From: Treponemataceae bacterium
GTDB lineage: Bacteria; Spirochaetota; Spirochaetia; Treponematales; Rectinemataceae
Reading direction: 5' to 3'
Length of the DNA: 64,000 bases
NCBI GenBank assembly: GCA_963678065.2
Contig: CAXXVZ010000003.1
Location: 160,001 to 224,000, forward strand
This document shows positions 11,924-40,246 of the stretch, one piece after another (position 1 is the first letter of the stretch; each line of letters begins with the position of its first letter). A program made the position numbers and the translations under genes. A model generated the notes under the pieces. It worked only from the letters and a program-made list of their open reading frames with translations. It made no database searches and was not told where the DNA came from.

Positions 11924-11948
11924 GGTATCTCCCTTGTGCCTTCTATAC

Positions 11949-11965: not shown

Positions 11966-12058
11966 TCTTGAAGCATTTTGTAGAAAAATTTTAACTATAT
12001 ATTATATAGATAAATAGATTGATGGCCGTGATTGCCGAAAGACAGTTGATTTCCGATC

Positions 12059-12110: not shown

Positions 12111-12145
12111 AAAAAAGCCATCCGGTTTGTGCCGGACGGCTTTTT
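12111..12145. terminator. intrinsic terminator after the LysM/M23 gene (possibly bidirectional)
   Basis: AAAAAAGCCATCCGG...CCGGACGGCTTTTT stem with A/T runs on both sides. Confidence 0.7.
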
Positions 12146-12177
12146 CGTCGATCCACTCGGAAGATGAAGACCGCAGT

Positions 12178-13734: not shown

Positions 13735-13790
13735 GCTTGTCCCTGTTTATCGACATTTTCCCGCATGGACATTATAGTCCGTTTACGAAG

Positions 13791-21924: not shown

Positions 21925-22033
21925 TTTTCGGAAAGGAATGACGATATGTTACGGGAAAGCATGTCTGGAACGGAGTCGATTCCGGGCCACGGCATCACGG
22001 AACCGCGACCTTGTGCATAGAGGAGGCTTCTGT

Positions 22034-25000
22034 ATGAAGGCTGGGCGACTGAAGATAGTATGCTGTGTGTTTGCAGCTTTTGTTTGTTCCGTGCCGCTCA
22101 TGGCCTACGACCCTCCTGCGGGCGCCGTGTATGTTCCCGCCCTGACCGCTCCGGGGACTCTCGTCTCGTCGGGCAGCGACACCGGCTCGGGAACGGAGGC
22201 GGCCCTCGATCCCTCCTCGAGCGCAAACCCCGCATGGCAGGCCGGAGCCCGCCTGAAGCGGCTCGACGCGGCCTATCTCGGCCTTACGGACTGGGGCGTC
22301 GCGACTCAGGGCTGGGGTTCGGCGGCATCCCTGTCCTACACGCTTCCCAAAGCCTATGGTGTCTGGGGATTCGGACTCCGTTTCCTGTCCGTTCCCAGCG
22401 CCATGACTCAGCTCCCTCTCGGGACCTTCGGGGAAGGGCGGGTTTCCTTTGCCAAGCAGGTGTTCTCCAACCTGGCCCTCGGAGCGGGAGTCTCCGCGCA
22501 GGCAGGTGGCAATGGAAGTTTCGGATGGGGCGCGGGTCTCGACCTCGGGTTCCGGCACGACATCGGCGACGCGGGATTCCTGAAGGCCCTGAGCTGGGGA
22601 ATGTCACTCTCCACCATCGGCAAAGGTTTCTCCTACGCGATACCCTCCCCTGTAAACGGCGTCTTCGGCACGGCTGCGACAGCCATCACGACACCCTTCA
22701 CCCTCGGCATCGAGGCGCGGGGCTTCCTCGTGAGGACAGAAAACTGGCGCATCGGCCTCGGCCTCGGCCTCTCGACTCCAGGTTTCGGCGACCTCGATTT
22801 CAAGGCCGACCTCGGCATCGGGTATAGGGATATCTTCTCTCTCGGCGTCGGCTGGGACGCAGGGCTCAAGGATCTTCGCGCGACAACGAGCCGGAGCCTT
22901 CTGCCCTCGGTGGGGCTCTCGGTCACCATCCCCCTCGCCGGAAACGGTTCGCCCGAGGCCCCCGGCTCGATCACGACCTCGGCGGCCTACGCTCCCCTGT
23001 ACGGCGACGTATCCGCTGTCGGCGGAGGAGTCGGCATCACTTTCGGAAAACGCGACAAGTCAGCGCCCTCTGTCACCCTCGATCTCCCTGGTGCCCCGCA
23101 CGAAACCTACTACCTCTCTCCCAACGGCGACAATGTCCAAGACAGTCTCGAGATTCCTGTCCGCGTGAGCGACGAAGGCTACCTCGCGGGATGGTCCTTC
23201 AGGGTCGAAGACAAGGCCGCCGGAAAAATGATCTTCCACAAGGAGGTCGAGCGAAAGCTTCCCGACCATTTGGCGGGAGCCTCCAGCCTCGCCGAGGGAC
23301 TTGGCTACGTGAGGGCCAGTCTTCCCGTGCCGGCAAAACTTGTGTGGAACGGCTACACCGACGAGGGCAGGCGTGCCCCGAACGGCGCCTATCTCGTCAG
23401 CTTCGAGGCCTGGGACGACGAGGGGCGCCGCAATGCCGACTACATCAACTGCCTTACCGTCGTCGTCGACAACGACGCGCCGAAGGTCTCCGTGTCCGGC
23501 ATCGACAAGAACAACATTTTCAGCCCCGACGGGGACGGCATCCGCGAAAGCATCCAGTTCCGCCTCGGTGGATCCGTGGAGAAGCTCTGGAAACTCGATA
23601 TCCAGGACAAGGACGGATCCGTCGTCAGGACGGAAAAGTGGCCAAACCAATCGCCTCCCGATTTTGTGTGGGACGGAACCGACGACAAGGGCACCGTTGT
23701 GCCGGACGGCACCTACTCCCTCCATCTCTCCGCGTCCAAGGAATCGGGCTTCGCTGCCGCGAAGACGATCGAGGGCATCGTAGTCGACACCCGCAGGCCG
23801 GCTGTCGCCGTCGAGCTCGTCGGCAATATCATGAGTCCCAACGGAGACGGAAAGAAAGATTCCATTGTAATCAGACCCAAACTCGAATCGAAGTCCGGAC
23901 TGGAGAAGTTCCGGGTCTTCGTGCTCGACGTGGACAGGAAGGAAGTCTGGTCGGTGTCCGGAACCGATCCTGCACGGCTCCTCGATTCCTACACGTTCAC
24001 CGGCAAGGATGCCGCGGGAAAGACTCTGCCCGACGGTCTTTACGAGGCGGGAATCAGTCTCGAATACATAAACGGATACAGTCCGCAGAAATTCAGTCCG
24101 CCCATTTTGGTCGATTCGACTCCGCCCTCCGCCGTTCTGGCGCTCAACGATCCCAACCGCGTTTTCAGTCCGGATGGAGACGGATCGCGGGACAGCTACG
24201 CCTTCTCGATCACTGGGTCTAAGGAAGATCTCTGGACCCTCGTCATGAAGAATGAGGCTGGCGCCGTGGTCCGAACCCTCGAATACAGGGACTCGGAACC
24301 CGTCGAGTTTGTCTGGGACGGGCGCGACGACAAGGGAAAGGTCGTGCCTGATGGAAAATACCGCCTCGAACTGAGCAGTACCGACAAGGCAGACAACTCC
24401 GCCCGCTTCGTCTCCGAGCAGGTCGTGGTAGACAACCGCAGGCCGGCCCTCAAGATGCTCATCGACTGGACCGATTTCAGTCCCAACGGAGACGGAATCC
24501 GCGATACGGTCAGGCTCGTCCCGAACCTCGAGTCCAGGGATGGGCTCGTTTCCTGGAAGGTCTCGGTCTCCGATTCATCCGGCCGGGAAGTCTGGAAGGT
24601 TTCAGGCACGGACCCCGCTGCTTTGAAGGACAAATACGATTTCGACGGCATGGACCCCGCGACGGGCAAACTCCTGCCCGAAGGCGCCTACCAGGCGAAG
24701 ACCGAACTCGTCTACGCCTCAGGCTACATGCCCCAGGCTTCGACCCCCGTCTTCAACCTGGACGCGACGTATCCCGTCGTCACGCTGAAAGCGGATGATA
24801 CTAATATTTTCTTCAGCCCCGACGGTGACGGAGTGCGCGACAGCCTGTCGTTCGCCATAAAGGGATCGAAGGAAGATCTCTGGTCCCTCGAAGTGCGCAG
24901 CGAGGACAACGTCCTCGTCCGCCTCGTCGAATTCCGCGATCGGGAGCCCGAATCCTTTGTCTGGGATGGCAAGGACAATTTCGGAAAGACTTTGCCCGAT

Positions 25001-28000
25001 GGAACCTACACTCTGACTATCGCCTCGACAGACAAGGCAGGGAATGCCTCCAAGCCGGTTTCTGCGACGGTGAAGATAGACACGCGCAAGCCAGTGGTGA
25101 CGCTGAGTGTGGATCGAGATGCGTTCAGTCCGAACGGGGATGGGATCAAGGATACGGTGACGCTGAGTCCGAAGCTGGAGCAGAAGGACGGGATACTGAG
25201 CTGGAAGCTGTGGGTTCGGGATCTAGCGGGGAAGGATATCTGGACAGTCTCAGGAGACGGGACGGCGCTGCCGGCAGGGGCGTACGTGCTGGACGGGAAG
25301 ACGGATGGGACTGGTGCGAAGGTGATATGGCCGGAAGGTGAGTACAAGGCAGGGATCGAGCTGGTGTACGCGTCGGGGCCGAGTCCGAAAGCGGAGACGG
25401 GGAGTTTTGTGCTGGATGCGACGTATCCGGCGGCGAGCCTTACGGAGAAGGAAGCAGGGTCGGTGTTCAGTCCGGACGGGGATGGGGTGAAGGATGTGAA
25501 AGCCTACGCCATCACGGGGACGAAGGAAGAGTTGTGGGTTCTGGAGATCAAGGATGGTGCTGGGCAGGTAGTGCGGTTGCAGGAATACCGGAATGCATCG
25601 CCGGAAGAGTTTGTGTGGGATGGGCGGGACAACACGGGCAAGATAGCGCCGGATGGGAGCTACGTACTTGAGCTGAGGAGTGAGGACAAGGCGGGGAACG
25701 CGGTGAAGCTGGTATCGCGGGCGGTGAAGATAGACACGCGCAAGCCAGCGGTATCGGTGGGAGTGGACAAGGACGCGTTCAGTCCGAACGGGGACGGGAT
25801 CAAGGACAGTCTGGAACTGACGGTGAAAGTGCCGTTGCGGGAAGGGTTGACGAAGTGGAGTGTTCGGATAGTCGGGAAGGCAGGGAACACGGTATGGAGT
25901 CGGGAAGGGAGTGATCCTGCTGGGCTTGGGGATAAGTATGTGCTGGATGGGAAGATCTCGGTAGCTGGTGCGAGTGGAGCGGAAGTGTCGCAGTGGCCGG
26001 AAGGGGAATACAAGGCGGTGATGGAGCTGTCGTACGACTCGGGGTATGAGCCGAAGGCGGAGACGGGATGGTTCCTGATGGACTCGGTGTTTCCGAAGGC
26101 GACGATGGAAGAGAAGGAGCCAGGGACGGTGTTCAGTCCGGACGGGGATGGGGTACGGGATGTGAAGGGCTGGACGATCACGGGATCGGTGGAAGAGCTA
26201 TGGACTCTGGAAGTGAAGGACAAAGCGGGGAAGGTAGTTCGTTCGGTGGAATACCGGAACGCGAAGCCGGAAGATTTCGTGTGGGACGGTCGGGACAATG
26301 TGGGGAAACCCGCATCAGATGGCGAGTATGTGGTGGAGTTAAGGAGTGCGGACAGGGCGGGGAACGCGGTGAAGCTGGTATCGCGGACGGTGAAGATAGA
26401 CACGCGCAAGCCAGTGGTGACGCTGAGTGTGGATCGAGATGCGTTCAGTCCGAACGGGGATGGGATCAAGGATACGGTGACGCTGAGTCCGAAGCTGGAG
26501 CAGAAGGACGGGATACTGAGCTGGAAGCTGTGGGTTCGGGATCTAGCGGGGAAGGATATCTGGACAGTCTCAGGAGACGGGACGGCGCTGCCGGCAGGGG
26601 CGTACGTGCTGGACGGGAAGACGGATGGGACTGGTGCGAAAGTGATATGGCCGGAAGGCGAGTACAAGGCAGGGATCGAGCTGGTGTACGCGTCGGGGCC
26701 GAGTCCGAAAGCGGAGACGGGGAGTTTTGTGCTGGATGCGACGTATCCGGCGGCGAGTGTTACGGAGAAGGAAGCAGGGTCGGTGTTCAGTCCGGACGGG
26801 GATGGGGTGAAGGATGTGAAAGCCTACGCCATCACGGGGACGAAGGAAGAGTTGTGGGTTCTGGAGATCAAGGATGGTGCTGGGCAGGTAGTGCGGTTGC
26901 AGGAATACCGGAATGCATCGCCGGAAGAGTTTGTGTGGGATGGGCGGGACAACACGGGCAAGATAGCGCCGGATGGGAGCTACGTACTTGAGCTGAGGAG
27001 TGAGGACAAGGCGGGGAACGCGGTGAAGCTGGTATCGCGGGCGGTGAAGATAGACACGCGCAAGCCAGCGGTATCGGTGGGAGTGGACAAGGACGCGTTC
27101 AGTCCGAACGGGGACGGGATCAAGGACAGTCTGGAACTGACGGTGAAAGTGCCGTTGCGGGAAGGGTTGACGAAGTGGAGTGTTCGGATAGTCGGGAAGG
27201 CAGGGAACACGGTATGGAGCCGGGAAGGGAGTGATCCTGCTGGGCTTGGGGATAAGTATGTGCTGGATGGGAAGATCTCGGTAGCTGGTGCGAGTGGAGC
27301 GGAAGTGTCGCAGTGGCCGGAAGGGGAATACAAGGCGGTGATGGAGCTGTCGTACGACTCGGGGTATGAGCCGAAGGCGGAGACGGGATGGTTCCTGATG
27401 GACTCGGTGTTTCCGAAGGCGACGATGGAAGAGAAGGAGCCAGGGACGGTGTTCAGTCCGGACGGGGATGGGGTACGGGATGTGAAGGGCTGGACGATCA
27501 CGGGATCGGTGGAAGAGCTATGGACTCTGGAAGTGAAGGACAAAGCGGGGAAGGTAGTTCGTTCGGTGGAATACCGGAACGCGAAGCCGGAAGATTTTGT
27601 GTGGGACGGTCGGGACAATGTGGGGAAACCCGCATCAGATGGCGAGTATGTGGTGGAGTTAAGGAGTGCGGACAGGGCGGGGAACGCGGTGAAGCTGGTA
27701 TCGCGGACGGTGAAGATAGACACGCGCAAGCCAGTGGTGACGCTGAGTGTGGATCGAGATGCGTTCAGTCCGAACGGGGATGGGATCAAGGATACGGTGA
27801 CGCTGAGTCCGAAGCTGGAGCAGAAGGACGGGATACTGAGCTGGAAGCTGTGGGTTCGGGATCTAGCGGGGAAGGATATCTGGACAGTCTCAGGAGACGG
27901 GACGGCGCTGCCGGCAGGGGCGTACGTGCTGGACGGGAAGACGGATGGGACTGGTGCGAAGGTGATATGGCCGGAAGGTGAGTACAAGGCAGGGATCGAG

Positions 28001-31000
28001 CTGGTGTACGCGTCGGGGCCGAGTCCGAAAGCGGAGACGGGGAGTTTTGTGCTGGATGCGACGTATCCGGCGGCGAGCCTTACGGAGAAGGAAGCAGGGT
28101 CGGTGTTCAGTCCGGACGGGGATGGGGTGAAGGATGTGAAAGCCTACGCCATCACGGGGACGAAGGAAGAGTTGTGGGTTCTGGAGATCAAGGATGGTGC
28201 TGGGCAGGTAGTGCGGTTGCAGGAATACCGGAATGCATCGCCGGAAGAGTTTGTGTGGGATGGGCGGGACAACACGGGCAAGATAGCGCCGGATGGGAGC
28301 TACGTACTTGAGCTGAGGAGTGAGGACAAGGCGGGGAACGCGGTGAAGCTGGTATCGCGGGCGGTGAAGATAGACACGCGCAAGCCAGCGGTATCGGTGG
28401 GAGTGGACAAGGACGCGTTCAGTCCGAACGGGGACGGGATCAAGGACAGTCTGGAACTGACGGTGAAAGTGCCGTTGCGGGAAGGGTTGACGAAGTGGAG
28501 TGTTCGGATAGTCGGGAAGGCAGGGAACACGGTATGGAGTCGGGAAGGGAGTGATCCTGCTGGGCTTGGGGATAAGTATGTGCTGGATGGGAAGATCTCG
28601 GTAGCTGGTGCGAGTGGAGCGGAAGTGTCGCTGTGGCCGGAAGGGGAATACAAGGCGGTGATGGAGCTGTCGTACGACTCGGGGTATGAGCCGAAGGCGG
28701 AGACGGGATGGTTCCTGATGGACTCGGTGTTTCCGAAGGCGACGATGGAAGAGAAGGAGCCAGGGACGGTGTTCAGTCCGGACGGGGATGGGGTACGGGA
28801 TGTGAAGGGCTGGACGATCACGGGATCGGTGGAAGAGCTATGGACTCTGGAAGTGAAGGACAAAGCGGGGAAGGTAGTTCGTTCGGTGGAATACCGGAAC
28901 GCGAAGCCGGAAGATTTCGTGTGGGACGGTCGGGACAATGTGGGGAAACCCGCATCAGATGGCGAGTATGTGGTGGAGTTAAGGAGTGCGGACAGGGCGG
29001 GGAACGCGGTGAAGCTGGTATCGCGGACGGTGAAGATAGACACGCGCAAGCCAGTGGTGACGCTGAGTGTGGATCGAGATGCGTTCAGTCCGAACGGGGA
29101 TGGGATCAAGGATACGGTGACGCTGAGTCCGAAGCTGGAGCAGAAGGACGGGATACTGAGCTGGAAGCTGTGGGTTCGGGATCTAGCGGGGAAGGATATC
29201 TGGACAGTCTCAGGAGACGGGACGGCGCTGCCGGCAGGGGCGTACGTGCTGGACGGGAAGACGGATGGGACTGGTGCGAAAGTGATATGGCCGGAAGGCG
29301 AGTACAAGGCAGGGATCGAGCTGGTGTACGCGTCGGGGCCGAGTCCGAAAGCGGAGACGGGGAGTTTTGTGCTGGATGCGACGTATCCGGCGGCGAGTGT
29401 TACGGAGAAGGAAGCAGGGTCGGTGTTCAGTCCGGACGGGGATGGGGTGAAGGATGTGAAAGCCTACGCCATCACGGGGACGAAGGAAGAGTTGTGGGTT
29501 CTGGAGATCAAGGATGGTGCTGGGCAGGTAGTGCGGTTGCAGGAATACCGGAATGCATCGCCGGAAGAGTTTGTGTGGGATGGGCGGGACAACACGGGCA
29601 AGATAGCGCCGGATGGGAGCTACGTACTTGAGCTGAGGAGTGAGGACAAGGCGGGGAACGCGGTGAAGCTGGTATCGCGGGCGGTGAAGATAGACACGCG
29701 CAAGCCAGCGGTATCGGTGGGAGTGGACAAGGACGCGTTCAGTCCGAACGGGGACGGGATCAAGGACAGTCTGGAACTGACGGTGAAAGTGCCGTTGCGG
29801 GAAGGGTTGACGAAGTGGAGTGTTCGGATAGTCGGGAAGGCAGGGAACACGGTATGGAGCCGGGAAGGGAGTGATCCTGCTGGGCTTGGGGATAAGTATG
29901 TGCTGGATGGGAAGATCTCGGTAGCTGGTGCGAGTGGAGCGGAAGTGTCGCAGTGGCCGGAAGGGGAATACAAGGCGGTGATGGAGCTGTCGTACGACTC
30001 GGGGTATGAGCCGAAGGCGGAGACGGGATGGTTCCTGATGGACTCGGTGTTTCCGAAGGCGACGATGGAAGAGAAGGAGCCAGGGACGGTGTTCAGTCCG
30101 GACGGGGATGGGGTACGGGATGTGAAGGGCTGGACGATCACGGGATCGGTGGAAGAGCTATGGACTCTGGAAGTGAAGGACAAAGCGGGGAAGGTAGTTC
30201 GTTCGGTGGAATACCGGAACGCGAAGCCGGAAGATTTTGTGTGGGACGGTCGGGACAATGTGGGGAAACCCGCATCAGATGGCGAGTATGTGGTGGAGTT
30301 AAGGAGTGCGGACAGGGCGGGGAACGCGGTGAAGCTGGTATCGCGGACGGTGAAGATAGACACGCGCAAGCCAGTGGTGACGCTGAGTGTGGATCGAGAT
30401 GCGTTCAGTCCGAACGGGGATGGGATCAAGGAAAACCTGACTGTGAGCGTCAATGTTCCGCTCAGGGAAGGGCTGACATCCTGGAAGCTGGCCGTATCGG
30501 ACAAATCCGGCAAGGAAATGTGGTCGGCGAGCGGAAAAGATTCTTCGACTCTTCCTGGATATATTGTCCTCGATTCCGAGCACCCCGAAGCGGGGCTTGT
30601 GGCCTCCTGGCCCGATGGCGAATACCTCGCCACCCTCTCTCTGGGCTACGCTTCCGGCTACGCTCCTTCAGTGCGGTCGTCGGTGTTCATTCTGGACAGG
30701 AAGTACCCGCAGGCATCCGTCTCCGTTGACCGGACCGCTTTCAACCCATCGGGAAGTGTCGGGCAGAATCTTGTCCGCATCACCCAGAAAGGAAGCGCCG
30801 AGGAGACGTGGAACGGGGAGATTCAGGACTCCACCGGGAGCTCGGTGCGATCCTGGAAATTCACGGGAGAGCCGCAGGCGGTGCTGGAGTGGGACGGCAT
30901 GGACCGGAACGGCAAGCTGTTGCCCGACGGGATGTATTCGTATGTCCTTAAGTCGACCGACCGTGCGGGGAACTCTTTCTCCACGGCCCCGATCCAGATC

Positions 31001-34000
31001 GCAGTCGATACAGAGAAGAAGACTCTCATTCTCACCTCGGATCGCAGGGCGTTCAGTCCGAACGGCGATGGAGTGAACGAGACCCTGACATTTACAGTCC
31101 GTTTCCGTGCGGCTGAGCGAATAAAGAGTTACGAGCTGACCGTAACGCCTCTCGGAGCTTCCGCTTCCGCTACATCCAGAACTGTCAGAACCTGGAAGGG
31201 CAGCTCGGGCTTGTTCGAAACCTATGTGTGGGATGGACTTGCCGACGATGGTTCCCGCATGCCTGATGGCAGCTATGTGGCGAAGCTGGTCGTAGTTTAC
31301 CAGAACGATGACAGGATCGAGGCCGTGACACCTCCCCTCATCATCGATACGGTCCGTCCGTCTATCACGGTCTCTGTCTCTCCTCTCATTTTCTCTCCGA
31401 ACGGGGACGGGAGGAGCGATTTCGTACTGTTTAAACAAAGATCGGTCGTGGGCGATGATTGGACAGGTACAATAACCTCTCCGTCCGGAGCGGAAGTCCG
31501 GGTCTGGTCCTGGAAATCCGACGCAGGCGATTTCATCTGGGACGGTAAAGACAGGGCAGGAAACATACTGCCTGACGGTACATACACGTATCGCATTGTC
31601 GCTACGGACTCTGCCGGTAACTTCTGCGATTCGGGCCCGATCGCCATACAGCTGGAGACGGAGAAGAAAGCGGTGACGCTGAGCGCGGACAAGAGAGCGT
31701 TCAGTCCGAACGGGGATGGGGTGAACGACACGCTGTCGCTGTTGGTGCAGGCGGCCACACCGACAAAAGTCAAGAGTTATGAACTTGTGATATCGGCGCA
31801 GAATGTGTCTGGTCTTTCTGCCGGCAAGACGGTGCGCAGCTGGAAGGGTGTCGATGGCTTGCAGTCTCTGTACCAGTGGGATGGACTCACGGATGAAGGG
31901 CTCAAGGCGCCTGACGGGATGTACAGTGCGAAGCTGTCGGTGCTGTACAAGAACGACGACAAGTTTGACGTTTCGGTGAGCGATCTGGCGATGGACCGGG
32001 TTGTGCCGAGCGCGAAAGTGTCGGCGAGCCTGGAAATATTCTCACCGAACGGGGATGGGCGGAGCGACACGGTGACCTACGTGCAGAGCTCGGTGCCTGG
32101 GGATGACTGGACGGGGAGGATGAAGGACCAGGCGGGGAAGGTGGTGAGGAGCTGGGTCTGGAAGAATGAGCTGAAAGATTTCGTGTGGGACGGGAAGGAC
32201 GCTGGTGGAGCGCTGTTGCCCGACGGGATCTACAGCTATGAGGTGAGCGCGACGGACATCGCGGGGAACAGCTTCACGGCGGGACCGGTGACGGTGAGAT
32301 TGGAGACGGCGAAGAAGGCGGTGACGCTGAGCGCGGACAAGAGAGCGTTCAGTCCGAACGGGGACAAGGTGAACGACACGCTGACACTGCGGGTGCAGGC
32401 AGCTACGCCGGAGAAGATCAAGAGCTTCGAGCTGGCGGTGACAGCCCAGGCAGTGACGGGAGTCACGCCGGGGATGGCGGTGAAGAGCTGGAAGGGGAAA
32501 GAGGGAATACAGGATCTGTATGTGTGGGACGGGCTGACGGATGAGGGGAGGAAAGCACCGGACGGGATGTACGGAGCGAAGCTGTCGGTGCTCTATCAGA
32601 ACGACGACAGGTTCGACGTTTCGGTGAGCGGAATAGCGATGGACAGCGTGGTTCCGAGCGCGACGGTATCGGTTGGGTCCGAGATCTTCTCTCCGAACGG
32701 TGATGGGCGGAGCGACACGGTGACGTTCAGCCAGAGCTCGGTGCCGGGAGACGACTGGACCGGCGTGATGAAGAACGAAACGGGGAAGGTGGTGAGGAGC
32801 TGGGCCTGGAAGAATGAGCTGAAGGATCTGGTGTGGGACGGGAAGGACCAGAGTGGAGTACTCCTGCCCGATGGGATCTACAGCTATGAGGTGAGCGCGA
32901 CGGACATCGCGGGGAACAGCTTCACGGCAGGACCGGTGACGGTGAGACTGGAGACGGAGAAGAAAGCGGTGACGCTGAGCGCGGACAAGAGAGCGTTCAG
33001 TCCGAACGGCGACAAATTGAACGACACGCTGACGCTGATGGTGCAAGCGAGTACTCCTGCGAGGATCAAGAGTTGGGAACTTGTGATATCGGCGCAGAAC
33101 GCGCAGGGACTTGCGTCTGGAGTGGTGCGCAGCTGGAAGGGGAGTGAGGATCTGCAGAGCCGGTACGAGTGGGATGGCATGAGCGACGGCAAGAGCGCGG
33201 CACCTGACGGGATGTACAGTGCGAAACTGTCGGTTTTGTACAAGAACGACGACAAGTTTGACGTTTCGGTGAGCGATCTGGCGATGGATCGGGTTGTGCC
33301 GAGCGCGAAAGTGTCGGCGAGCCTGGAAATCTTCTCTCCGAACGGGGATGGGCGGAGCGACACGGTGACGTTCAGCCAGAGCTCGGTGCCGGGAGACGAC
33401 TGGACCGGCGTGATGAAGAACGAAACGGGCAAGGTGGTGAGGAGCTGGGCCTGGAAGAATGAACTGAAAGATTTCGCCTGGGACGGGAAGGATCAGAATG
33501 GGATACTCCAGCCCGACGGGATCTACGTGTACACGGTGAGCGCGACGGACATCGCGGGGAACAGCTTCACGGCGGGACCGCTTTCCGTCCGACTCGAGAA
33601 CGAGAAGAAGGCGGTGACGCTGAGCGCGGACAAGAGAGCGTTCAGTCCGAACGGGGATGGGGTGAACGACACGCTGTCGCTGCTGGTGCAGGCGGCCACA
33701 CCGACAAAAGTCAAGAGTTATGAACTTGTGATATCGGCGCAGAATGTGTCCGGACTTTCTGCCGGCAAGACGGTGCGCAGCTGGAAGGGCGTCGATGGCT
33801 TGCAGTCTCTGTACCAGTGGGACGGACTCACGGATGAGGGGCTCAAGGCGCCTGACGGGATGTACAGTGCGAAGCTGTCGGTGCTGTACAAGAACGACGA
33901 CAAGTTTGACGTTTCGGTGAGCGATCTGGCGATGGACCGGGTTGTGCCGAGCGCGAAAGTGTCGGCGAGCCTGGAAATATTCTCACCGAACGGGGATGGG

Positions 34001-37000
34001 CGGAGCGACACGGTGACCTACGTGCAGAGCTCGGTGCCTGGGGATGACTGGACGGGGAGGATGAAGGACCAGGCGGGGAAGGTGGTGAGGAGCTGGGTCT
34101 GGAAGAATGAGCTGAAAGATTTCGTGTGGGACGGGAAGGATGCTGGTGGAGCGCTGTTGCCCGACGGGATCTACAGCTATGAGGTGAGTGCGACGGACAT
34201 CGCGGGGAACAGCTTCACGGCGGGACCGGTGACGGTGAGACTGGAGACGGCGAAGAAGGCGGTGACGCTGAGCGCGGACAAGAGAGCGTTCAGTCCGAAC
34301 GGGGACAAGGTGAACGACACGCTGACACTGCGGGTGCAGGCAGCTACGCCGGAGAAGATCAAGAGCTTCGAGCTGGCGGTGACAGCCCAGGCAGTGACGG
34401 GAGTCACGCCGGGGATGGCGGTGAAGAGCTGGAAGGGGAAAGAAGGAATACAGGATCTGTATGTGTGGGACGGGCTGACGGATGATGGGAGGAAAGCACC
34501 GGACGGGATGTACGGAGCGAAGCTGTCGGTGCTCTATCAGAACGACGACAGGTTCGATGTTTCGGTGAGCGGAATAGCGATGGACAGCGTGGTTCCGAGC
34601 GCGACGGTATCGGTTGGGTCCGAGATCTTCTCTCCGAACGGTGATGGGCGGAGCGACACGGTGACGTTCAGCCAGAGCTCGGTGCCGGGAGACGACTGGA
34701 CCGGCGTGATGAAGAACGAAACGGGGAAGGTGGTGAGGAGCTGGGCCTGGAAGAGTGAGCTGAAGGATCTGGTGTGGGACGGGAAGGACCAGAGTGGAGT
34801 ACTCCTGCCCGACGGGATCTACAGCTATGAGGTGAGCGCGACGGACATCGCGGGGAACAGCTTCACGGCAGGACCGGTGACGGTGAGACTGGAGACGGAG
34901 AAGAAAGCGGTGACGCTGAGCGCGGACAAGAGAGCGTTCAGTCCGAACGGCGACAAATTGAACGACACGCTGACGCTGATGGTGCAAGCGAGTACTCCTG
35001 CGAGGATCAAGAGTTGGGAACTTGTGATATCGGCGCAGAACGCGCAGGGACTTGCGTCTGGAGTGGTGCGCAGCTGGAAGGGGAGTGAGGATCTGCAGAG
35101 CCGGTACGAGTGGGATGGCATGAGCGACGGCAAGAGCGCGGCACCTGACGGGATGTACAGTGCGAAACTGTCGGTTTTGTACAAGAACGACGACAAGTTT
35201 GACGTTTCGGTGAGCGATCTGGCGATGGATCGGGTTGTGCCGAGCGCGAAAGTGTCGGCGAGCCTGGAAATCTTCTCTCCGAACGGTGATGGGCGGAGCG
35301 ACACGGTGACGTTCAGCCAGAGCTCGGTGCCGGGAGACGATTGGATCGGCGTGATGAAGAACGAAACGGGCAAGGTGGTGAGGAGCTGGGTCTGGAAGAA
35401 TGAACTGAAAGATTTCGCCTGGGACGGGAAGGATCAGAATGGGATACTCCAGTCCGACGGGATCTACGTGTACACGGTGAGCGCGACGGACATCGCGGGG
35501 AACAGCTTCACGGCGGGACCGCTTTCCGTCCGACTCGAGAACGAGAAGAAGGCGGTGACGCTGAGCGCGGACAAGAGAGCGTTCAGTCCGAACGGGGATG
35601 GGGTGAACGACACGCTGTCGCTGTTGGTGCAGGCGGCCACACCGACAAAAGTCAAGAGTTATGAACTTGTGATATCGGCGCAGAATGTGTCTGGTCTTTC
35701 TGCCGGCAAGACGGTGCGCAGCTGGAAGGGTGTCGATGGCTTGCAGTCTCTGTACCAGTGGGATGGACTCACGGATGAGGGGCTCAAGGCGCCTGACGGG
35801 ATGTACAGTGCGAAGCTGTCGGTGCTGTACAAGAACGACGACAAGTTTGACGTTTCGGTGAGCGATCTGGCGATGGACCGGGTTGTGCCGAGCGCGAAAG
35901 TGTCGGCGAGCCTGGAAATATTCTCACCGAACGGGGATGGGCGGAGCGACACGGTGACCTACGTGCAGAGCTCGGTGCCTGGGGATGACTGGACGGGGAG
36001 GATGAAGGACCAGGCGGGGAAGGTGGTGAGGAGCTGGGTCTGGAAGAATGAGCTGAAAGATTTCGTGTGGGACGGGAAGGACGCTGGTGGAGCGCTGTTG
36101 CCCGACGGGATCTACAGCTATGAGGTGAGCGCGACGGACATCGCGGGGAACAGCTTCACGGCGGGACCGGTGACGGTGAGATTGGAGACGGCGAAGAAGG
36201 CGGTGACGCTGAGCGCGGACAAGAGAGCGTTCAGTCCGAACGGGGACAAGGTGAACGACACGCTGACACTGCGGGTGCAGGCAGCTACGCCGGAGAAGAT
36301 CAAGAGCTTCGAGCTGGCGGTGACAGCCCAGGCAGTGACGGGAGTCACGCCGGGGATGGCGGTGAAGAGCTGGAAGGGGAAAGAGGGAATACAGGATCTG
36401 TATGTGTGGGACGGGCTGACGGATGAGGGGAGGAAAGCACCGGACGGGATGTACGGAGCGAAGCTGTCGGTGCTCTATCAGAACGACGACAGGTTCGACG
36501 TTTCGGTGAGCGGAATAGCGATGGACAGCGTGGTTCCGAGCGCGACGGTATCGGTTGGGTCCGAGATCTTCTCTCCGAACGGTGATGGGCGGAGCGACAC
36601 GGTGACGTTCAGCCAGAGCTCGGTGCCGGGAGACGACTGGACCGGCGTGATGAAGAACGAAACGGGGAAGGTGGTGAGGAGCTGGGCCTGGAAGAATGAG
36701 CTGAAGGATCTGGTGTGGGACGGGAAGGACCAGAGTGGAGTACTCCTGCCCGATGGGATCTACAGCTATGAGGTGAGCGCGACGGACATCGCGGGGAACA
36801 GCTTCACGGCGGGACCGGTGACGGTGAGACTGGAGACGGAGAAGAAAGCGGTGACACTGAGCGCGGACAAGAGAGCGTTCAGTCCGAACGGCGACAAATT
36901 GAACGACACGCTCGCCCTGCGGGTCCAGGCTGCCTCCCCGACCAAGGTCAGGAGCTTCGAACTCGCCGTGATCACGCAGAATGTGTCCGGTCTTTCTGCC

Positions 37001-39238
37001 GGCAAGAAGGTGCGCAGCTGGAAGGGTGTCGATGGCTTGCAGTCTCTCTACCAGTGGGATGGCCTCACAGACGATGGACTCAAGGCCCCCGATGGACTCT
37101 ACGGCGCCAGACTCACTGTCCTCTACCAGAACGACGACTTGTTCGAGATTCCCCTCGCGGGCATCATTCTGGACACGGTCGCCCCCAAGATAGAGGTATC
37201 CGTGACCTCCGCCATCTTCTCGCCCAACGGCGACAAGCGCAATGATTTTGCTGAATACATACAGAAATCCCTGCCGGGCGATGACTGGACCGGCAGGATG
37301 AAAGACCATGATGGAAAGACTGTACGGACCTGGACCTGGAAGAACGAGGCGAAGAACTTTGTCTGGGACGGAAAGGATCAGGCCGGGAATCTCCTCAAGG
37401 ACGGCAGCTACTATTACGAAGCCACTTCGACCGATGTGGCTGGCAACAGCTTCACGAGCGCGCCTCTGGCAGTCATTCTCGAGAGTGAAAAAAGGGTTGT
37501 GCGGCTTGCCGCCGATCAGCGCGCCTTCAGCCCCAACGGCGACGGCGTCAAGGACATCCTCCTTCTCTCGCCGCAGGTCCAGGCGCCCGACAAGATGACC
37601 TCCTTCTCCCTCGCCGTCACGGCGCTGGAAGTCCCTGGCATCGAGGCGGGAACGCCGGTCCGGACCTGGAAGGGAGCGCGGGATGTGGCCGACACCTACG
37701 TCTGGGACGGCTCAGGAGACTCCGGCAAACCCCTGCCCGACGGCAGGTACGCCGCGAATCTCACGGTCACTTACAGGAACGGCGACGTGATGGAAGCCGC
37801 CACGCCCACTATTCTCCTCGACCGCGTCGCGCCGAAGATCACCCTGAGCGCCTCGCCCCTCGTCTTCTCCCCCAACGGAGACGGCGTGAAGGACATCATT
37901 ACGTTCACACAGAGCTCTGTGCCGGGCGACGACTGGACGGGTCGCATCGTTGCAGCGAACGGCATCACGGTGAAAGCCCTGAGCTGGAAGACTCAGGCGA
38001 AGAGCTTCTCCTGGGACGGCCTCGACGATTCAGGAAAACTGGTGCGGGACGGGAACTACCGGTACGAGGTCTCCTCGACGGACGCCGCCGGCAACAAAGG
38101 CGCGGCCGCGGTCGAAGGTATCCTGGTGGACGCCTTCGTGCCCAAGGTCTACCTGACCGCATCCGAGACGGGCATCTCCCCCAACGGGGACGGCTTCAAA
38201 GACGATGTCTCCTTCACCCTCGTCGTGGACAGGCGGGAAGAGATAGAGTCCTGGAGCATCACTATTGTCGCGGCGGACGGAAGCATCAAAAACTCCTTCG
38301 GCGGCTCGGCCGGCGAAGTCCCTGGACGACTCGTCTGGGACGGCATGGACACCGCAGGTCAGGTCGCCACAGGCACCATCGTCGGCAAGCTCGTCGTGAA
38401 ATACGCGAAGGGCGATATCGCGGAAGCCACGAGCGACAAAGTCTACGTCAATGTCGCACCGCCCAAGGTGGACGTCACCCTCACACCCGAGTTCTTCAGC
38501 CCGGACGGGGACGGCGCCGACGACAAGCTTACCTTCGGCATAAAAGTCGCTGACCCGGCCAAGGTTGCCGAGTGGCGGCTCGAGGTCATCGAGGAAGCGG
38601 TGGTGGAAGGCTCGGCCCAGGACGCAGCCGCAACGCAGCGCCTCTTCAGGGCCTGGTCCGGGAAGGGTACCCCGCCCGCCTCCATCGTGTGGGACGGAAA
38701 GGGGCAGGAGGGCGAACTCGTGGAGGCCGCCACCAATTATCCCTTCACGTTCATGATCAAAGACGCCCTCGGCAACGCGACGAAGATTTCAGGCGTAGTC
38801 GCTGTCGACGTGCTCGTTCTGCGCGAGGGCGACAGACTCAAGATCAAGGTCCCCTCCATCGTTTTCCGGGCCAACCACGCCGACTTCGAGGGATTGGATC
38901 CCGAGATCACGGCTAACAACGCCCGCGTCATCAAGCGCATCGCCCAGATTCTCAACAAGTTCCCGGACTACCGGATCAGGATCGAGGGCCACGCCAACAA
39001 CGTCGGCAAGATGCTCGGCTACTCGGAGGCCCGGATCAACACCGAGGAGACGAAGGAACTCATCCCTCTCTCCACGGGACGCGCCGAACTCGTGCGCAAG
39101 CTCCTCGTCGAAGACAATGTCGATGCACGCAGGCTTTCGGTGAAGGGGCTCGGCTCCAGCGAGCCTGTCGTCAGCTTCCGCGACGCGAGCAACAGGTGGA
39201 AAAACAGGAGGGTCGAGTTCATCCTTATAAAGAATTAG
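22034..39238 (+). CDS. giant envelope protein (~5,734 aa): signal peptide, beta-barrel-like domain, 48 FlgD/CHU_C-like Ig modules, C-terminal OmpA-like domain
   Basis: AGGAGG RBS before ATG 22034; amphipathic strands at aa ~30-340; repeated FSP(N/D)GDG...WDG...PDGxY modules; IEGHAN...LSTGRA...GLG...NRRVEF at the C-terminus. Confidence 0.9.
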   Translation: MKAGRLKIVCCVFAAFVCSVPLMAYDPPAGAVYVPALTAPGTLVSSGSDTGSGTEAALDPSSSANPAWQAGARLKRLDAAYLGLTDWGVATQGWGSAASLSYTLPKAYGVWGFGLRFLSVPSAMTQLPLGTFGEGRVSFAKQVFSNLALGAGVSAQAGGNGSFGWGAGLDLGFRHDIGDAGFLKALSWGMSLSTIGKGFSYAIPSPVNGVFGTAATAITTPFTLGIEARGFLVRTENWRIGLGLGLSTPGFGDLDFKADLGIGYRDIFSLGVGWDAGLKDLRATTSRSLLPSVGLSVTIPLAGNGSPEAPGSITTSAAYAPLYGDVSAVGGGVGITFGKRDKSAPSVTLDLPGAPHETYYLSPNGDNVQDSLEIPVRVSDEGYLAGWSFRVEDKAAGKMIFHKEVERKLPDHLAGASSLAEGLGYVRASLPVPAKLVWNGYTDEGRRAPNGAYLVSFEAWDDEGRRNADYINCLTVVVDNDAPKVSVSGIDKNNIFSPDGDGIRESIQFRLGGSVEKLWKLDIQDKDGSVVRTEKWPNQSPPDFVWDGTDDKGTVVPDGTYSLHLSASKESGFAAAKTIEGIVVDTRRPAVAVELVGNIMSPNGDGKKDSIVIRPKLESKSGLEKFRVFVLDVDRKEVWSVSGTDPARLLDSYTFTGKDAAGKTLPDGLYEAGISLEYINGYSPQKFSPPILVDSTPPSAVLALNDPNRVFSPDGDGSRDSYAFSITGSKEDLWTLVMKNEAGAVVRTLEYRDSEPVEFVWDGRDDKGKVVPDGKYRLELSSTDKADNSARFVSEQVVVDNRRPALKMLIDWTDFSPNGDGIRDTVRLVPNLESRDGLVSWKVSVSDSSGREVWKVSGTDPAALKDKYDFDGMDPATGKLLPEGAYQAKTELVYASGYMPQASTPVFNLDATYPVVTLKADDTNIFFSPDGDGVRDSLSFAIKGSKEDLWSLEVRSEDNVLVRLVEFRDREPESFVWDGKDNFGKTLPDGTYTLTIASTDKAGNASKPVSATVKIDTRKPVVTLSVDRDAFSPNGDGIKDTVTLSPKLEQKDGILSWKLWVRDLAGKDIWTVSGDGTALPAGAYVLDGKTDGTGAKVIWPEGEYKAGIELVYASGPSPKAETGSFVLDATYPAASLTEKEAGSVFSPDGDGVKDVKAYAITGTKEELWVLEIKDGAGQVVRLQEYRNASPEEFVWDGRDNTGKIAPDGSYVLELRSEDKAGNAVKLVSRAVKIDTRKPAVSVGVDKDAFSPNGDGIKDSLELTVKVPLREGLTKWSVRIVGKAGNTVWSREGSDPAGLGDKYVLDGKISVAGASGAEVSQWPEGEYKAVMELSYDSGYEPKAETGWFLMDSVFPKATMEEKEPGTVFSPDGDGVRDVKGWTITGSVEELWTLEVKDKAGKVVRSVEYRNAKPEDFVWDGRDNVGKPASDGEYVVELRSADRAGNAVKLVSRTVKIDTRKPVVTLSVDRDAFSPNGDGIKDTVTLSPKLEQKDGILSWKLWVRDLAGKDIWTVSGDGTALPAGAYVLDGKTDGTGAKVIWPEGEYKAGIELVYASGPSPKAETGSFVLDATYPAASVTEKEAGSVFSPDGDGVKDVKAYAITGTKEELWVLEIKDGAGQVVRLQEYRNASPEEFVWDGRDNTGKIAPDGSYVLELRSEDKAGNAVKLVSRAVKIDTRKPAVSVGVDKDAFSPNGDGIKDSLELTVKVPLREGLTKWSVRIVGKAGNTVWSREGSDPAGLGDKYVLDGKISVAGASGAEVSQWPEGEYKAVMELSYDSGYEPKAETGWFLMDSVFPKATMEEKEPGTVFSPDGDGVRDVKGWTITGSVEELWTLEVKDKAGKVVRSVEYRNAKPEDFVWDGRDNVGKPASDGEYVVELRSADRAGNAVKLVSRTVKIDTRKPVVTLSVDRDAFSPNGDGIKDTVTLSPKLEQKDGILSWKLWVRDLAGKDIWTVSGDGTALPAGAYVLDGKTDGTGAKVIWPEGEYKAGIELVYASGPSPKAETGSFVLDATYPAASLTEKEAGSVFSPDGDGVKDVKAYAITGTKEELWVLEIKDGAGQVVRLQEYRNASPEEFVWDGRDNTGKIAPDGSYVLELRSEDKAGNAVKLVSRAVKIDTRKPAVSVGVDKDAFSPNGDGIKDSLELTVKVPLREGLTKWSVRIVGKAGNTVWSREGSDPAGLGDKYVLDGKISVAGASGAEVSLWPEGEYKAVMELSYDSGYEPKAETGWFLMDSVFPKATMEEKEPGTVFSPDGDGVRDVKGWTITGSVEELWTLEVKDKAGKVVRSVEYRNAKPEDFVWDGRDNVGKPASDGEYVVELRSADRAGNAVKLVSRTVKIDTRKPVVTLSVDRDAFSPNGDGIKDTVTLSPKLEQKDGILSWKLWVRDLAGKDIWTVSGDGTALPAGAYVLDGKTDGTGAKVIWPEGEYKAGIELVYASGPSPKAETGSFVLDATYPAASVTEKEAGSVFSPDGDGVKDVKAYAITGTKEELWVLEIKDGAGQVVRLQEYRNASPEEFVWDGRDNTGKIAPDGSYVLELRSEDKAGNAVKLVSRAVKIDTRKPAVSVGVDKDAFSPNGDGIKDSLELTVKVPLREGLTKWSVRIVGKAGNTVWSREGSDPAGLGDKYVLDGKISVAGASGAEVSQWPEGEYKAVMELSYDSGYEPKAETGWFLMDSVFPKATMEEKEPGTVFSPDGDGVRDVKGWTITGSVEELWTLEVKDKAGKVVRSVEYRNAKPEDFVWDGRDNVGKPASDGEYVVELRSADRAGNAVKLVSRTVKIDTRKPVVTLSVDRDAFSPNGDGIKENLTVSVNVPLREGLTSWKLAVSDKSGKEMWSASGKDSSTLPGYIVLDSEHPEAGLVASWPDGEYLATLSLGYASGYAPSVRSSVFILDRKYPQASVSVDRTAFNPSGSVGQNLVRITQKGSAEETWNGEIQDSTGSSVRSWKFTGEPQAVLEWDGMDRNGKLLPDGMYSYVLKSTDRAGNSFSTAPIQIAVDTEKKTLILTSDRRAFSPNGDGVNETLTFTVRFRAAERIKSYELTVTPLGASASATSRTVRTWKGSSGLFETYVWDGLADDGSRMPDGSYVAKLVVVYQNDDRIEAVTPPLIIDTVRPSITVSVSPLIFSPNGDGRSDFVLFKQRSVVGDDWTGTITSPSGAEVRVWSWKSDAGDFIWDGKDRAGNILPDGTYTYRIVATDSAGNFCDSGPIAIQLETEKKAVTLSADKRAFSPNGDGVNDTLSLLVQAATPTKVKSYELVISAQNVSGLSAGKTVRSWKGVDGLQSLYQWDGLTDEGLKAPDGMYSAKLSVLYKNDDKFDVSVSDLAMDRVVPSAKVSASLEIFSPNGDGRSDTVTYVQSSVPGDDWTGRMKDQAGKVVRSWVWKNELKDFVWDGKDAGGALLPDGIYSYEVSATDIAGNSFTAGPVTVRLETAKKAVTLSADKRAFSPNGDKVNDTLTLRVQAATPEKIKSFELAVTAQAVTGVTPGMAVKSWKGKEGIQDLYVWDGLTDEGRKAPDGMYGAKLSVLYQNDDRFDVSVSGIAMDSVVPSATVSVGSEIFSPNGDGRSDTVTFSQSSVPGDDWTGVMKNETGKVVRSWAWKNELKDLVWDGKDQSGVLLPDGIYSYEVSATDIAGNSFTAGPVTVRLETEKKAVTLSADKRAFSPNGDKLNDTLTLMVQASTPARIKSWELVISAQNAQGLASGVVRSWKGSEDLQSRYEWDGMSDGKSAAPDGMYSAKLSVLYKNDDKFDVSVSDLAMDRVVPSAKVSASLEIFSPNGDGRSDTVTFSQSSVPGDDWTGVMKNETGKVVRSWAWKNELKDFAWDGKDQNGILQPDGIYVYTVSATDIAGNSFTAGPLSVRLENEKKAVTLSADKRAFSPNGDGVNDTLSLLVQAATPTKVKSYELVISAQNVSGLSAGKTVRSWKGVDGLQSLYQWDGLTDEGLKAPDGMYSAKLSVLYKNDDKFDVSVSDLAMDRVVPSAKVSASLEIFSPNGDGRSDTVTYVQSSVPGDDWTGRMKDQAGKVVRSWVWKNELKDFVWDGKDAGGALLPDGIYSYEVSATDIAGNSFTAGPVTVRLETAKKAVTLSADKRAFSPNGDKVNDTLTLRVQAATPEKIKSFELAVTAQAVTGVTPGMAVKSWKGKEGIQDLYVWDGLTDDGRKAPDGMYGAKLSVLYQNDDRFDVSVSGIAMDSVVPSATVSVGSEIFSPNGDGRSDTVTFSQSSVPGDDWTGVMKNETGKVVRSWAWKSELKDLVWDGKDQSGVLLPDGIYSYEVSATDIAGNSFTAGPVTVRLETEKKAVTLSADKRAFSPNGDKLNDTLTLMVQASTPARIKSWELVISAQNAQGLASGVVRSWKGSEDLQSRYEWDGMSDGKSAAPDGMYSAKLSVLYKNDDKFDVSVSDLAMDRVVPSAKVSASLEIFSPNGDGRSDTVTFSQSSVPGDDWIGVMKNETGKVVRSWVWKNELKDFAWDGKDQNGILQSDGIYVYTVSATDIAGNSFTAGPLSVRLENEKKAVTLSADKRAFSPNGDGVNDTLSLLVQAATPTKVKSYELVISAQNVSGLSAGKTVRSWKGVDGLQSLYQWDGLTDEGLKAPDGMYSAKLSVLYKNDDKFDVSVSDLAMDRVVPSAKVSASLEIFSPNGDGRSDTVTYVQSSVPGDDWTGRMKDQAGKVVRSWVWKNELKDFVWDGKDAGGALLPDGIYSYEVSATDIAGNSFTAGPVTVRLETAKKAVTLSADKRAFSPNGDKVNDTLTLRVQAATPEKIKSFELAVTAQAVTGVTPGMAVKSWKGKEGIQDLYVWDGLTDEGRKAPDGMYGAKLSVLYQNDDRFDVSVSGIAMDSVVPSATVSVGSEIFSPNGDGRSDTVTFSQSSVPGDDWTGVMKNETGKVVRSWAWKNELKDLVWDGKDQSGVLLPDGIYSYEVSATDIAGNSFTAGPVTVRLETEKKAVTLSADKRAFSPNGDKLNDTLALRVQAASPTKVRSFELAVITQNVSGLSAGKKVRSWKGVDGLQSLYQWDGLTDDGLKAPDGLYGARLTVLYQNDDLFEIPLAGIILDTVAPKIEVSVTSAIFSPNGDKRNDFAEYIQKSLPGDDWTGRMKDHDGKTVRTWTWKNEAKNFVWDGKDQAGNLLKDGSYYYEATSTDVAGNSFTSAPLAVILESEKRVVRLAADQRAFSPNGDGVKDILLLSPQVQAPDKMTSFSLAVTALEVPGIEAGTPVRTWKGARDVADTYVWDGSGDSGKPLPDGRYAANLTVTYRNGDVMEAATPTILLDRVAPKITLSASPLVFSPNGDGVKDIITFTQSSVPGDDWTGRIVAANGITVKALSWKTQAKSFSWDGLDDSGKLVRDGNYRYEVSSTDAAGNKGAAAVEGILVDAFVPKVYLTASETGISPNGDGFKDDVSFTLVVDRREEIESWSITIVAADGSIKNSFGGSAGEVPGRLVWDGMDTAGQVATGTIVGKLVVKYAKGDIAEATSDKVYVNVAPPKVDVTLTPEFFSPDGDGADDKLTFGIKVADPAKVAEWRLEVIEEAVVEGSAQDAAATQRLFRAWSGKGTPPASIVWDGKGQEGELVEAATNYPFTFMIKDALGNATKISGVVAVDVLVLREGDRLKIKVPSIVFRANHADFEGLDPEITANNARVIKRIAQILNKFPDYRIRIEGHANNVGKMLGYSEARINTEETKELIPLSTGRAELVRKLLVEDNVDARRLSVKGLGSSEPVVSFRDASNRWKNRRVEFILIKN
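25066..30432 (+). repeat. intragenic tandem array A: ~4.07 copies of a 1,320-bp unit (4 Ig modules each)
   Basis: Lines 25081/26401/27721/29041/30361 are identical; only a handful of substitutions between copies. Confidence 0.97.
31661..36912 (+). repeat. intragenic tandem array B: ~2.7 copies of a 1,941-bp unit (6 Ig modules; three ~647-bp subunits)
   Basis: Unit starts at 31661/33602/35543; copies near-identical. Confidence 0.95.
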
Positions 39239-39310: not shown

Positions 39311-40246
39311 TCAGAAATCTCCCGCCATGATTATTTCCGGTTCGAGTGTGAAACCGAGTTTTTCTCTCACTTCGTCCTGTGCGAGGCGGATGAGGAGCCT
39401 CATATCGCTCGCCCTGGCCACGCCTGCGTTGACGAAGATGTTGGCGTGCCAGTCGGAGACGGCGGCATCCCCGATCCTTTTACCCCTGAAGCCGAGCGAG
39501 TCGAGGACGGCTCCGCTCGGCGCGCCTATCAGTCTGTCGTTCTTGAAGACCGAGCCGGCGGAGGGAAGGCGGTAATGCCCCTTGCGCTCCCTGTCCGTCC
39601 GGCGCTCGCGCATGATGCAGGCCGTGCGCGCGGGGTCTCCGGAGTCGAGCTCGAAGCTCGCTCCGAGGATGAGGCTGCCCGCGAGAGGCTCCCTGTCCTG
39701 GAAGGGGGAGCGCTTGTAGGACCATTCGGCGGGGTCGAAGGGGTGAACGAAGAGTCTGCCGTCGGGACCCGCGGCGAGAACTTCGGGGCTGAGGTCGGCG
39801 ATCTCCGTATCGTAGCAGCGCGCGTTCATGAGGATGGCCCCGCCGAGCGAGCCCGGCATGCCGGCAAAATTCCCGAAACCCTTGAGTCCGCGCGCGAGGG
39901 TTTCGAGGCAAACTTCATCCACGGAGAGACCCGCCTCCGCCGTGAAGCGCTTTCCGCGAACCGACACGGAACGGAGGTTTTCGGTGCTCGCGACGATTCC
40001 CCGGATACCGCGGTCCCCCACGAGGAGGTTCGCCCCGCCGCCGATCACGAAGACGGGGATGCCTTCCGCCCGCGCCGCTTCGAGGAGGCGGAGAAACTCC
40101 GAGCGGTTCCCGGGCGCGATCCAGGCGTCGGCGGGGCCGCCTATCCGCATCGTCGTGTGTCCCGACAGGGGCTCATCGAAGGAAGGGCGGGCCCCAATAT
40201 TGATTTTTCCGAAGAATTGCCGTAGTTTGTTCGTCATTACCCGCAT
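39311..40246 (-). CDS. murB: UDP-N-acetylmuramate dehydrogenase
   Basis: HTTMRIGGPA, GGGANLL, MPGSLGGA.MNA, PSAGSVFKN, HANIFVN, LEPE; start may be 40237. Confidence 0.96.
   Translation of the reverse strand: MRVMTNKLRQFFGKINIGARPSFDEPLSGHTTMRIGGPADAWIAPGNRSEFLRLLEAARAEGIPVFVIGGGANLLVGDRGIRGIVASTENLRSVSVRGKRFTAEAGLSVDEVCLETLARGLKGFGNFAGMPGSLGGAILMNARCYDTEIADLSPEVLAAGPDGRLFVHPFDPAEWSYKRSPFQDREPLAGSLILGASFELDSGDPARTACIMRERRTDRERKGHYRLPSAGSVFKNDRLIGAPSGAVLDSLGFRGKRIGDAAVSDWHANIFVNAGVARASDMRLLIRLAQDEVREKLGFTLEPEIIMAGDF

Follow-up and report, generated by a model that had tools for sequence, protein, structure and literature searches.

A 48-module barrel–Ig–OmpA protein as the extreme member of a widespread spirochaete family of candidate outer-membrane tethers

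The protein encoded at positions 22034-39238 of the window (the whole stretch of DNA analysed here, 64,000 nucleotides with zero N) is, judged from its sequence, an extreme, six-fold lengthened member of a widespread spirochaete family, the usual form of which contains 8 Ig modules. It holds 48 modules between a predicted outer-membrane β-barrel and a C-terminal OmpA-like (OmpA-C) domain. The preferred reading, to which a probability of roughly 0.55 is attached, is a non-covalent tether from the outer membrane to the peptidoglycan, with an adaptive long form. Barrel-plus-OmpA tethers are already known as a kind, and the 48-module protein would be an extreme variant of an apparently unstudied spirochaete family of such tethers.

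Gene and overall architecture

The ORF listing of the window contains a single + strand open frame at 21938-39238 (5,766 codons). Its likely start is the ATG at 22034, which yields a protein of 5,734 amino acids, and the mature protein would begin at a conserved YDPP motif. A sequence-only reading of this DNA had proposed a signal peptide, a barrel, 48 modules and a terminal OmpA-like domain; all four were borne out by the ORF listing, motif scan, Pfam and AlphaFold2. The sequence itself shows the architecture, the number of modules and the history of the repeats. The features are as follows, all on the + strand.

20893-21924, +: upstream gene with a likely signal peptide; conserved neighbour, possible operon partner
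22021-22026, +: ribosome-binding site AGGAGG, preceding the likely ATG at 22034 (sequence)
22034-22105, +: likely Sec signal peptide, residues 1-24 (sequence; the conserved part of homologues begins at the same YDPP motif)
22106-22255, +: predicted plug (hatch) of the barrel, NPA motif at 22226 (fold model and structure match; N41 and P42 invariant in 102 rows)
22256-23044, +: predicted 14-stranded FadL/PorV-like outer-membrane β-barrel (AlphaFold2 strands; FadL/PorV matches)
23054-23080, +: first strand of Ig module 1, likely donor strand (strand in model; remains on the barrel protein where the gene is split)
23081-23494, +: remainder of Ig module 1, family position 1 (motif scan, position profiles)
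23495-30715, +: arm 1, modules 2-23, 11 copies of the family position 2/3 pair (motif scan, position profiles)
25100-30379, +: four-module unit of 1,320 bp in 4 tandem copies (modules 7-22), with differences at 1-7 bases
30716-31027, +: module 24, the lone central module (family position 4), with the sole degenerate Asp loop
31028-38149, +: arm 2, modules 25-46, 11 pairs mostly of family position 5/6 type (motif scan, position profiles)
31676-36856, +: six-module unit of 1,941 bp, repeated in tandem about 2.7 times (modules 27-42)
38150-38815, +: modules 47-48, family positions 7 and 8 (motif scan, position profiles, fold model)
38816-39238, +: OmpA-C domain and stop, GHAN at 38987 and LSxxRA at 39068 with Arg kept (Pfam, fold match, alignment)

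The upstream gene matches no known family. It accompanies the family gene at 58 of 122 loci and in the window (loci overlap and some are incomplete), in many of them immediately adjacent, and 41 rows of it share 58-71% identity. Of the genes that recur as neighbours at the family loci, none for transport was prominent. Envelope-related genes occur elsewhere in the window, at 9945-16108 (a divergent polysaccharide deacetylase, a LysM-M23 peptidase, a signal peptidase and a PASTA-domain PBP), and murB lies just downstream on the opposite strand (39311-40246); PBP genes are present in the source genome. Two other very long frames of that genome, G000:C3:287918-298672 (3,585 codons) and C3:1628765-1634992 (2,076 codons), have signal-peptide-like starts and are unrelated to the Ig module profile.

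The barrel domain

The fold of the N-terminal domain is predicted. AlphaFold2, applied to the mature N-terminal 567 amino acids with a 39-row alignment, returned a helical N-terminal plug followed by 14 strands, with a mean pLDDT of 88.0. After re-alignment of Foldseek's top 1,000 chains, FadL (Z 27.0, rmsd 3.4, 271 aligned) and PorV (Z 26.5, rmsd 3.4, 274 aligned) are tied as matches of this model, while the best match outside the FadL/PorV-like barrels reaches Z 17.9. These results agree with the PorV/FadL-type barrel suggested from the sequence. A language-model search with the barrel led to FadL-named spirochaete clusters and to PorV clusters, and the NPA motif is kept, N41 and P42 being invariant. 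Searches of Pfam and the PDB with the barrel sequence gave no useful match: PF03349 is absent from the window protein and weak in 2 of 102 homologous barrels (best E 0.037). The PorV/PorQ family NF033709 (90 bits) has no match anywhere in the source genome and is weak in 29 of the 102 (best E 3.8e-9).

Ig modules and their repeat history

The repeats match Pfam FlgD_ig, CHU_C and Big_13 in the three protein fragments scanned, which cover both ends. A motif scan delimits exactly 48 modules in two alternating types, long (107-134 residues) and short (102-104 residues), and an HMM built from these modules also finds 48 domains. An Asp-rich loop is present in 47 of the 48, which suggests calcium binding. 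Position profiles trained on 108 eight-module proteins assign the order 1,(2,3)x11,4,(5,6)x11,7,8, with a few uncertain calls.

As the repeat units are 99% identical, a count of 48 could in principle be an assembly artefact, an explanation that is hardly credible. In a second strain, on a contig of 3.04 Mb, two frameshift-broken parts, P0012 (4,065 residues, 34 modules) and P0162 (1,669 residues, 14 modules), are collinear with the window protein, on which they align end to end with 96 substitutions and no insertions. That strain thus also has 48 modules, with its own substitutions in each copy, and the number is therefore not an assembly error. A database protein identical to the window protein is moreover on record for 2 contigs; the source genome itself comprises 5.27 Mb in 5 contigs. 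GC skew is about 0.43 over 25100-30379 and about 0.30 over 31676-36856, against about 0 elsewhere.

The two strains are 1.7% apart. A substitution specific to one strain is often seen at the equivalent position of all repeat copies, which implies homogenisation of the copies inside each strain with no change in the count of 48. The repeat blocks are hence a clear case of concerted evolution.

The OmpA-C domain and its pocket

The C-terminal domain scores 45.8 bits against OmpA PF00691 (Pfam cut-off 27.2), and its predicted fold, in a model with the last three modules (pLDDT 89.6), matches the periplasmic domain of OmpA (Z 16.2, rmsd 2.5, 118 aligned) and Treponema pallidum Tp0624 (Z 15.1). In the alignment, the wall-binding pocket reads GHAN instead of the canonical GHTD, the Asp being replaced by Asn, and the Arg is kept. 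PMC7192894 describes Asp, Asn and Arg as the three wall-binding side chains of PorE; only the Arg is clearly kept here, since the Asn position is not kept in the alignments either. This Arg does not vary in 38 rows. A regular expression applied to 193 distinct C-terminal domains counts GHAN in 111, GHAV in 23 and GHTD in 9, with about 20 rows mis-parsed. The GHTD forms come from genomes outside the class of the window, and the canonical GHTD...R is found in deep-branching homologues, so peptidoglycan binding is likely ancestral in the family. The OmpA-C domain of the 48-module protein is accordingly best described as a candidate peptidoglycan binder with a modified pocket. Treponemal walls contain ornithine rather than DAP, which could explain the change from Asp to Asn.

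The barrel and the pocket together raise another explanation: a FadL-type channel for hydrophobic molecules, in which the Ig chain would serve as periplasmic conduit or scaffold and the altered OmpA domain may not bind the wall. PorV, which is a docking barrel and not a channel, nevertheless fits the model as well as FadL, the nominal best match. The retained NPA motif and the replacement of the pocket Asp in most Spirochaetia members speak for a channel, as do the FadL-like barrels of T. pallidum with C-terminal periplasmic domains, which PMC8407342 presents as proposed transporters. The near-absence of PF03349, the lack of prominent transport genes among the conserved neighbours and the invariant Arg all point the other way, and a channel appears distinctly unlikely.

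Distribution and module number in the family

Searches for the barrel matched 40 of 41 related genomes, 168 of 251 genomes of the class and 155 of 301 Spirochaetota genomes; of the 39 relatives in which it matched, 37 carry a single copy. The closest named records belong to Rectinemataceae, Rectinema, Treponema and other spirochaetes. No match was obtained in several whole families of the class (f8, 0/22; f67, 0/22) or of the phylum (f26, 0/34; f21, 0/61); in f21, 34 of 61 genomes contain a barrel-less form like Leptospira Lsa66. The literature search, which left subscription papers outside, retrieved no study of a barrel-(Ig)n-OmpA architecture, and Lsa66 was the only studied homologue that it found. 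The protein, put forward earlier as the best candidate for an undescribed system, is not unique, given the breadth of this distribution.

Among 82 distinct complete ORFs from the loci, 61 have 8 modules; the others have 4 (5), 9 (2), 10 (1), 12 (1), 16 (10) or 20 (2). The 48-module protein nests inside the family tree and follows the family order, in which the barrel is succeeded by positions 1 to 8 and then by OmpA-C. Among the matches listed, no other open frame exceeds 2,684 residues. The numbers fall mostly on multiples of four (4, 8, 12, 16, 20, 48), a suggestive pattern: in related sequences 44 of 54 proteins with a number other than 8 obey it, and none with a barrel has 6 modules. Counted by eye as distinct events, about 10 of 13 are multiples of four (p = 0.046 against an even split, a rough estimate). 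The second repeat unit of the window protein, with its six modules, departs from this pattern. Hairpin symmetry, seen here as 22 + 22 modules around module 24, was rejected as a family rule, because most 12-, 16- and 20-module forms are asymmetric.

Several paralogues were recorded. A 9-module paralogue in the source genome, L001:7268-11986 (- strand; G000:C5), lacks about the first 48 residues of the barrel, i.e., the plug, and may form an open barrel; it groups with the 48-module protein in the tree. In short paralogues (L002:7062-8813, - strand, G000:C4; L113; L118), a linker that is Pro/Ala/Thr-rich or made of Ala/Lys repeats is combined with a single Ig module of terminal type and the same OmpA-C domain; L002 looks lipoprotein-like. 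Barrel-plus-Ig paralogues without an OmpA domain (L147:2872-6399 and L148:3689-5863, both - strand) and barrel-less Ig-OmpA paralogues with 4, 6 or 8 modules (L167-L171) also occur.

Split genes and topology of the chain

In many treponemes the gene is split into a barrel and a separately exported Ig-OmpA protein. At 5 loci, a barrel gene that ends in the first strand of module 1 is adjacent to an Ig8-OmpA gene, whose own signal peptide lies just before the first Asp loop. Barrel-only proteins make up 36 of 160 database proteins, and nearly all of them end in the first Ig strand. This arrangement suggests donor-strand completion in the periplasm between the barrel and its split Ig-OmpA partner. 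Complex prediction for one split pair gave 0.37 against 0.00 for the best control, with at least 84% contact agreement between runs and a partner pLDDT of at least 81. Of 157 solved pairs, 116 pass the mark used, as do 2 of 215 mismatched ones; values at or below 0.60 belong to 18 of the 157 and to both of these mismatches. The prediction weakly backs the pairing and adds little to it, because the halves of a split gene tend to pass.

According to the secondary structure of the AlphaFold2 model, strand 14 ends on the side of the barrel that also bears the short turns. By the usual rule for barrels this side would be the periplasm, and the chain would exit there. That the split barrel keeps the first Ig strand supports a periplasmic chain. 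The periplasmic location, which had been anticipated from the sequence, is thus favored both by the strand topology of the model and by split Ig-OmpA genes with signal peptides of their own.

The same observations bear on a different proposal, a surface adhesin like SiiE or Lsa66 that is held outside the cell by the barrel. Long homogenised repeats are typical of adhesins, and giant adhesin repeats are the top Foldseek matches for the Ig part. Lsa66 is the best NCBIfam match, and a further match of the modules is to the type-B sorting domain of the T9SS, for which PMC9143113 describes cell-surface docking on a barrel. In the model, the barrel C-terminus is nevertheless on the short-turn side and the lumen is plugged, the chain terminates in an OmpA-C domain, the split forms have a plain signal peptide and no PorV-family gene was found in the genome; a SprA_N search found no match in the source genome or in any control genome. 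An adhesin is therefore judged very unlikely.

Flagella and lengthening of the chain

Among 69 genomes of the family to which the window belongs, flagellin was found in 28 and FlhA in 30. In the 66 with a barrel match, frames longer than 2,000 residues occur in 23 of 37 genomes of non-flagellated genera versus 0 of 29 of flagellated genera, where the longest frame has 1,820 residues. The other 14 non-flagellated genomes have frames below 1,700 residues, some ending at contig ends, and none within the range of 1,300-1,500 residues typical of 8 modules. In a tree of 29 sequences, 8 long non-flagellated forms (7 relatives and the window protein) and the paralogue of the window protein form one clade with support 1.0. 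The long forms thus represent one event, and no statistical claim can be made for the flagellum link. A sister clade is steady at 16 or 20 modules across many genera.

The flagellar status of other genomes sets bounds to this link. Loss of flagella as a general law of tether lengthening was rejected, as five other FliF-negative families have no barrel match (0/32); G029 was likewise discarded as a second loss, being without FliF but with FlaA present. The gene is not essential, because the flagellated families f8 and f26 lack a match.

The source genome has no match for flagellin, FlaA or rod/hook proteins, nor for the flagellin cluster of a relative, though the flanks of that cluster match. 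Outside the window, at L179:1700-16750 (G000:C3 about 1,177,700-1,192,750), it keeps frames of the export core: fliF, fliG, fliH, fliI, fliO, fliP, fliR, flhB, flhA, flhF and a fliA-like sigma factor. This core could be either a vestige in decay or a type III export apparatus put to another use. The 39 other flagellin-negative genomes of the family outside genus g10 are also without FlhA.

Whether the extra length is adaptive is a separate matter from the tether itself. The same tether could have neutral extra length, if loss of flagella relaxed a limit on length and unequal crossing-over inflated the repeats. The near-identical 1,320-bp and 1,941-bp units, which indicate recent recombination, the 9-module paralogue in the same genome and the fact that other expansions copied different modules are in line with such a history. 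The count of exactly 48 kept by two strains 1.7% apart despite homogenised copies is the evidence for adaptive length and, together with the steady 16 or 20 modules of the sister clade, makes neutrality doubtful.

Comparison with known systems

A survey (bioRxiv 10.1101/2021.05.31.446380) lists OmpA as the only known tether system in Spirochaetes. Like OmpA-type tethers such as E. coli OmpA and OprF, the family combines an outer-membrane barrel and a C-terminal PF00691 domain in one chain. It differs in the predicted 14 strands and plug of the window protein, as compared to the 8 strands of classical OmpA, in the 4-48 Ig modules that replace a short linker between the two ends, and in the Asn of the pocket.

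Leptospira Lsa66 (LIC10258; NF053608) shares homologous Ig modules followed by an OmpA-like domain, but the window protein reaches 278.7 bits against a cut-off of 700 for NF053608. The Lsa66-like proteins that were fetched have 4 modules and a degenerate OmpA motif; at 3/3 loci, neither the protein nor the DNA within about 6 kb of its gene encodes a barrel. The barrel itself resembles FadL/TodX, PorV and the FadL-like proteins of T. pallidum in its 14 strands, N-terminal plug and NPA motif; unlike FadL/TodX and PorV, to which identity is about 11-15% and below family cut-offs, it is fused to an Ig rod and an OmpA-C domain.

SiiE-type giant adhesins are exported by type I secretion and extend outward. 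They and the ice-binding adhesin resemble the window protein in having Ig modules by the dozen in tandem, repeats that are nearly identical, and acidic loops, whereas the window protein has a Sec signal, a barrel of its own and an OmpA-C end. The spacer of Thermotoga Omp-alpha is a coiled coil, and the Omp-alpha/Omp-beta system uses an SLH domain and a porin; no homology was seen, and Pfam gave no SLH match in the three scanned protein fragments covering both ends. The likeness lies in a long spacer from sheath to wall, and in Thermotoga the barrel and the part that binds the wall can be encoded by two neighbouring genes, as bioRxiv 10.1101/2021.05.31.446380 reports. The PorP-PorE-type B CTD complex of the T9SS, as presented in PMC9143113, also unites a barrel, CHU_C-like Ig domains and a periplasmic OmpA-C anchor. 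There, three proteins are involved and the CTD is outside the cell; here, one chain is used and its modules would be periplasmic. No T9SS was found in the source genome by searches for the PorV family or for SprA_N, the latter being without match in the controls as well.

Proposed function

In the tether reading, the protein would be exported by Sec and its barrel inserted into the outer membrane. The chain would leave the barrel on the short-turn side and lie in the periplasm, where the modules, as long/short pairs, would form a semi-rigid rod to which calcium at the Asp loops probably lends stiffness, and the OmpA-C domain would grip peptidoglycan through its modified pocket. The combination of a predicted outer-membrane barrel, a periplasmic chain and an OmpA-C end in one protein favors the tether put forward in the sequence-only reading. 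Against it stand the altered pocket, the families devoid of the gene, the restriction of the flagellum link to a single clade, and the report, in PMC3130794, of the barrel-less relative Lsa66 on the Leptospira surface.

The part of that reading which did not stand is a ruler: the usual number is 8 modules, seen in 61 of 82 complete ORFs, members run from 4 to 48, and no link between length and periplasm width was seen here. An Ig domain is about 4 nm long; at this value 8 modules would extend over about 30 nm and 48 modules over about 190 nm. In PMC13547282, membrane-to-membrane distances in Leptospira are given within a 25-nm range. As about 190 nm is far beyond a spirochaete periplasm, the chain would be slack, or a strut or leash along the cell, rather than a gap setter. 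Lengthening from 8 to 16-48 modules would have arisen on the branch that lost the flagellar filament, and a longer tether might allow a looser yet attached outer sheath or provide extra envelope support.

A bolder and unlikely extension may be added, that of a length-tunable spirochaete tether changing in steps of four since both ends must keep their orientation. After loss of the periplasmic flagella, it would have become a periplasmic strut of about 190 nm, or a hairpin of about 90 nm bent at the central module 24 between two 22-module arms, replacing the filaments as envelope support or holding a ballooned sheath.

Significance

Newly observed here are the steps of four, suggestive as they are, the split form with its putative donor strand, the lengthening on a filament-less branch, and the Asn in place of a wall-binding Asp. 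How the loose outer membrane of spirochaetes is fastened over rotating periplasmic flagella is poorly understood, and the barrel-(Ig)n-OmpA family is a direct candidate. Otherwise, tether length that scales with the spacing of the envelope is known chiefly for Lpp (cited in PMC13547282). The family offers a natural length series (4, 8, 12, 16, 20 and 48 modules), fused and split, in flagellated and non-flagellated sister genera, by which it becomes testable whether tether length sets the envelope gap. The 48-module protein is the most informative extreme: should its organism have a normal gap, the ruler would fail and a lateral strut would come into consideration.
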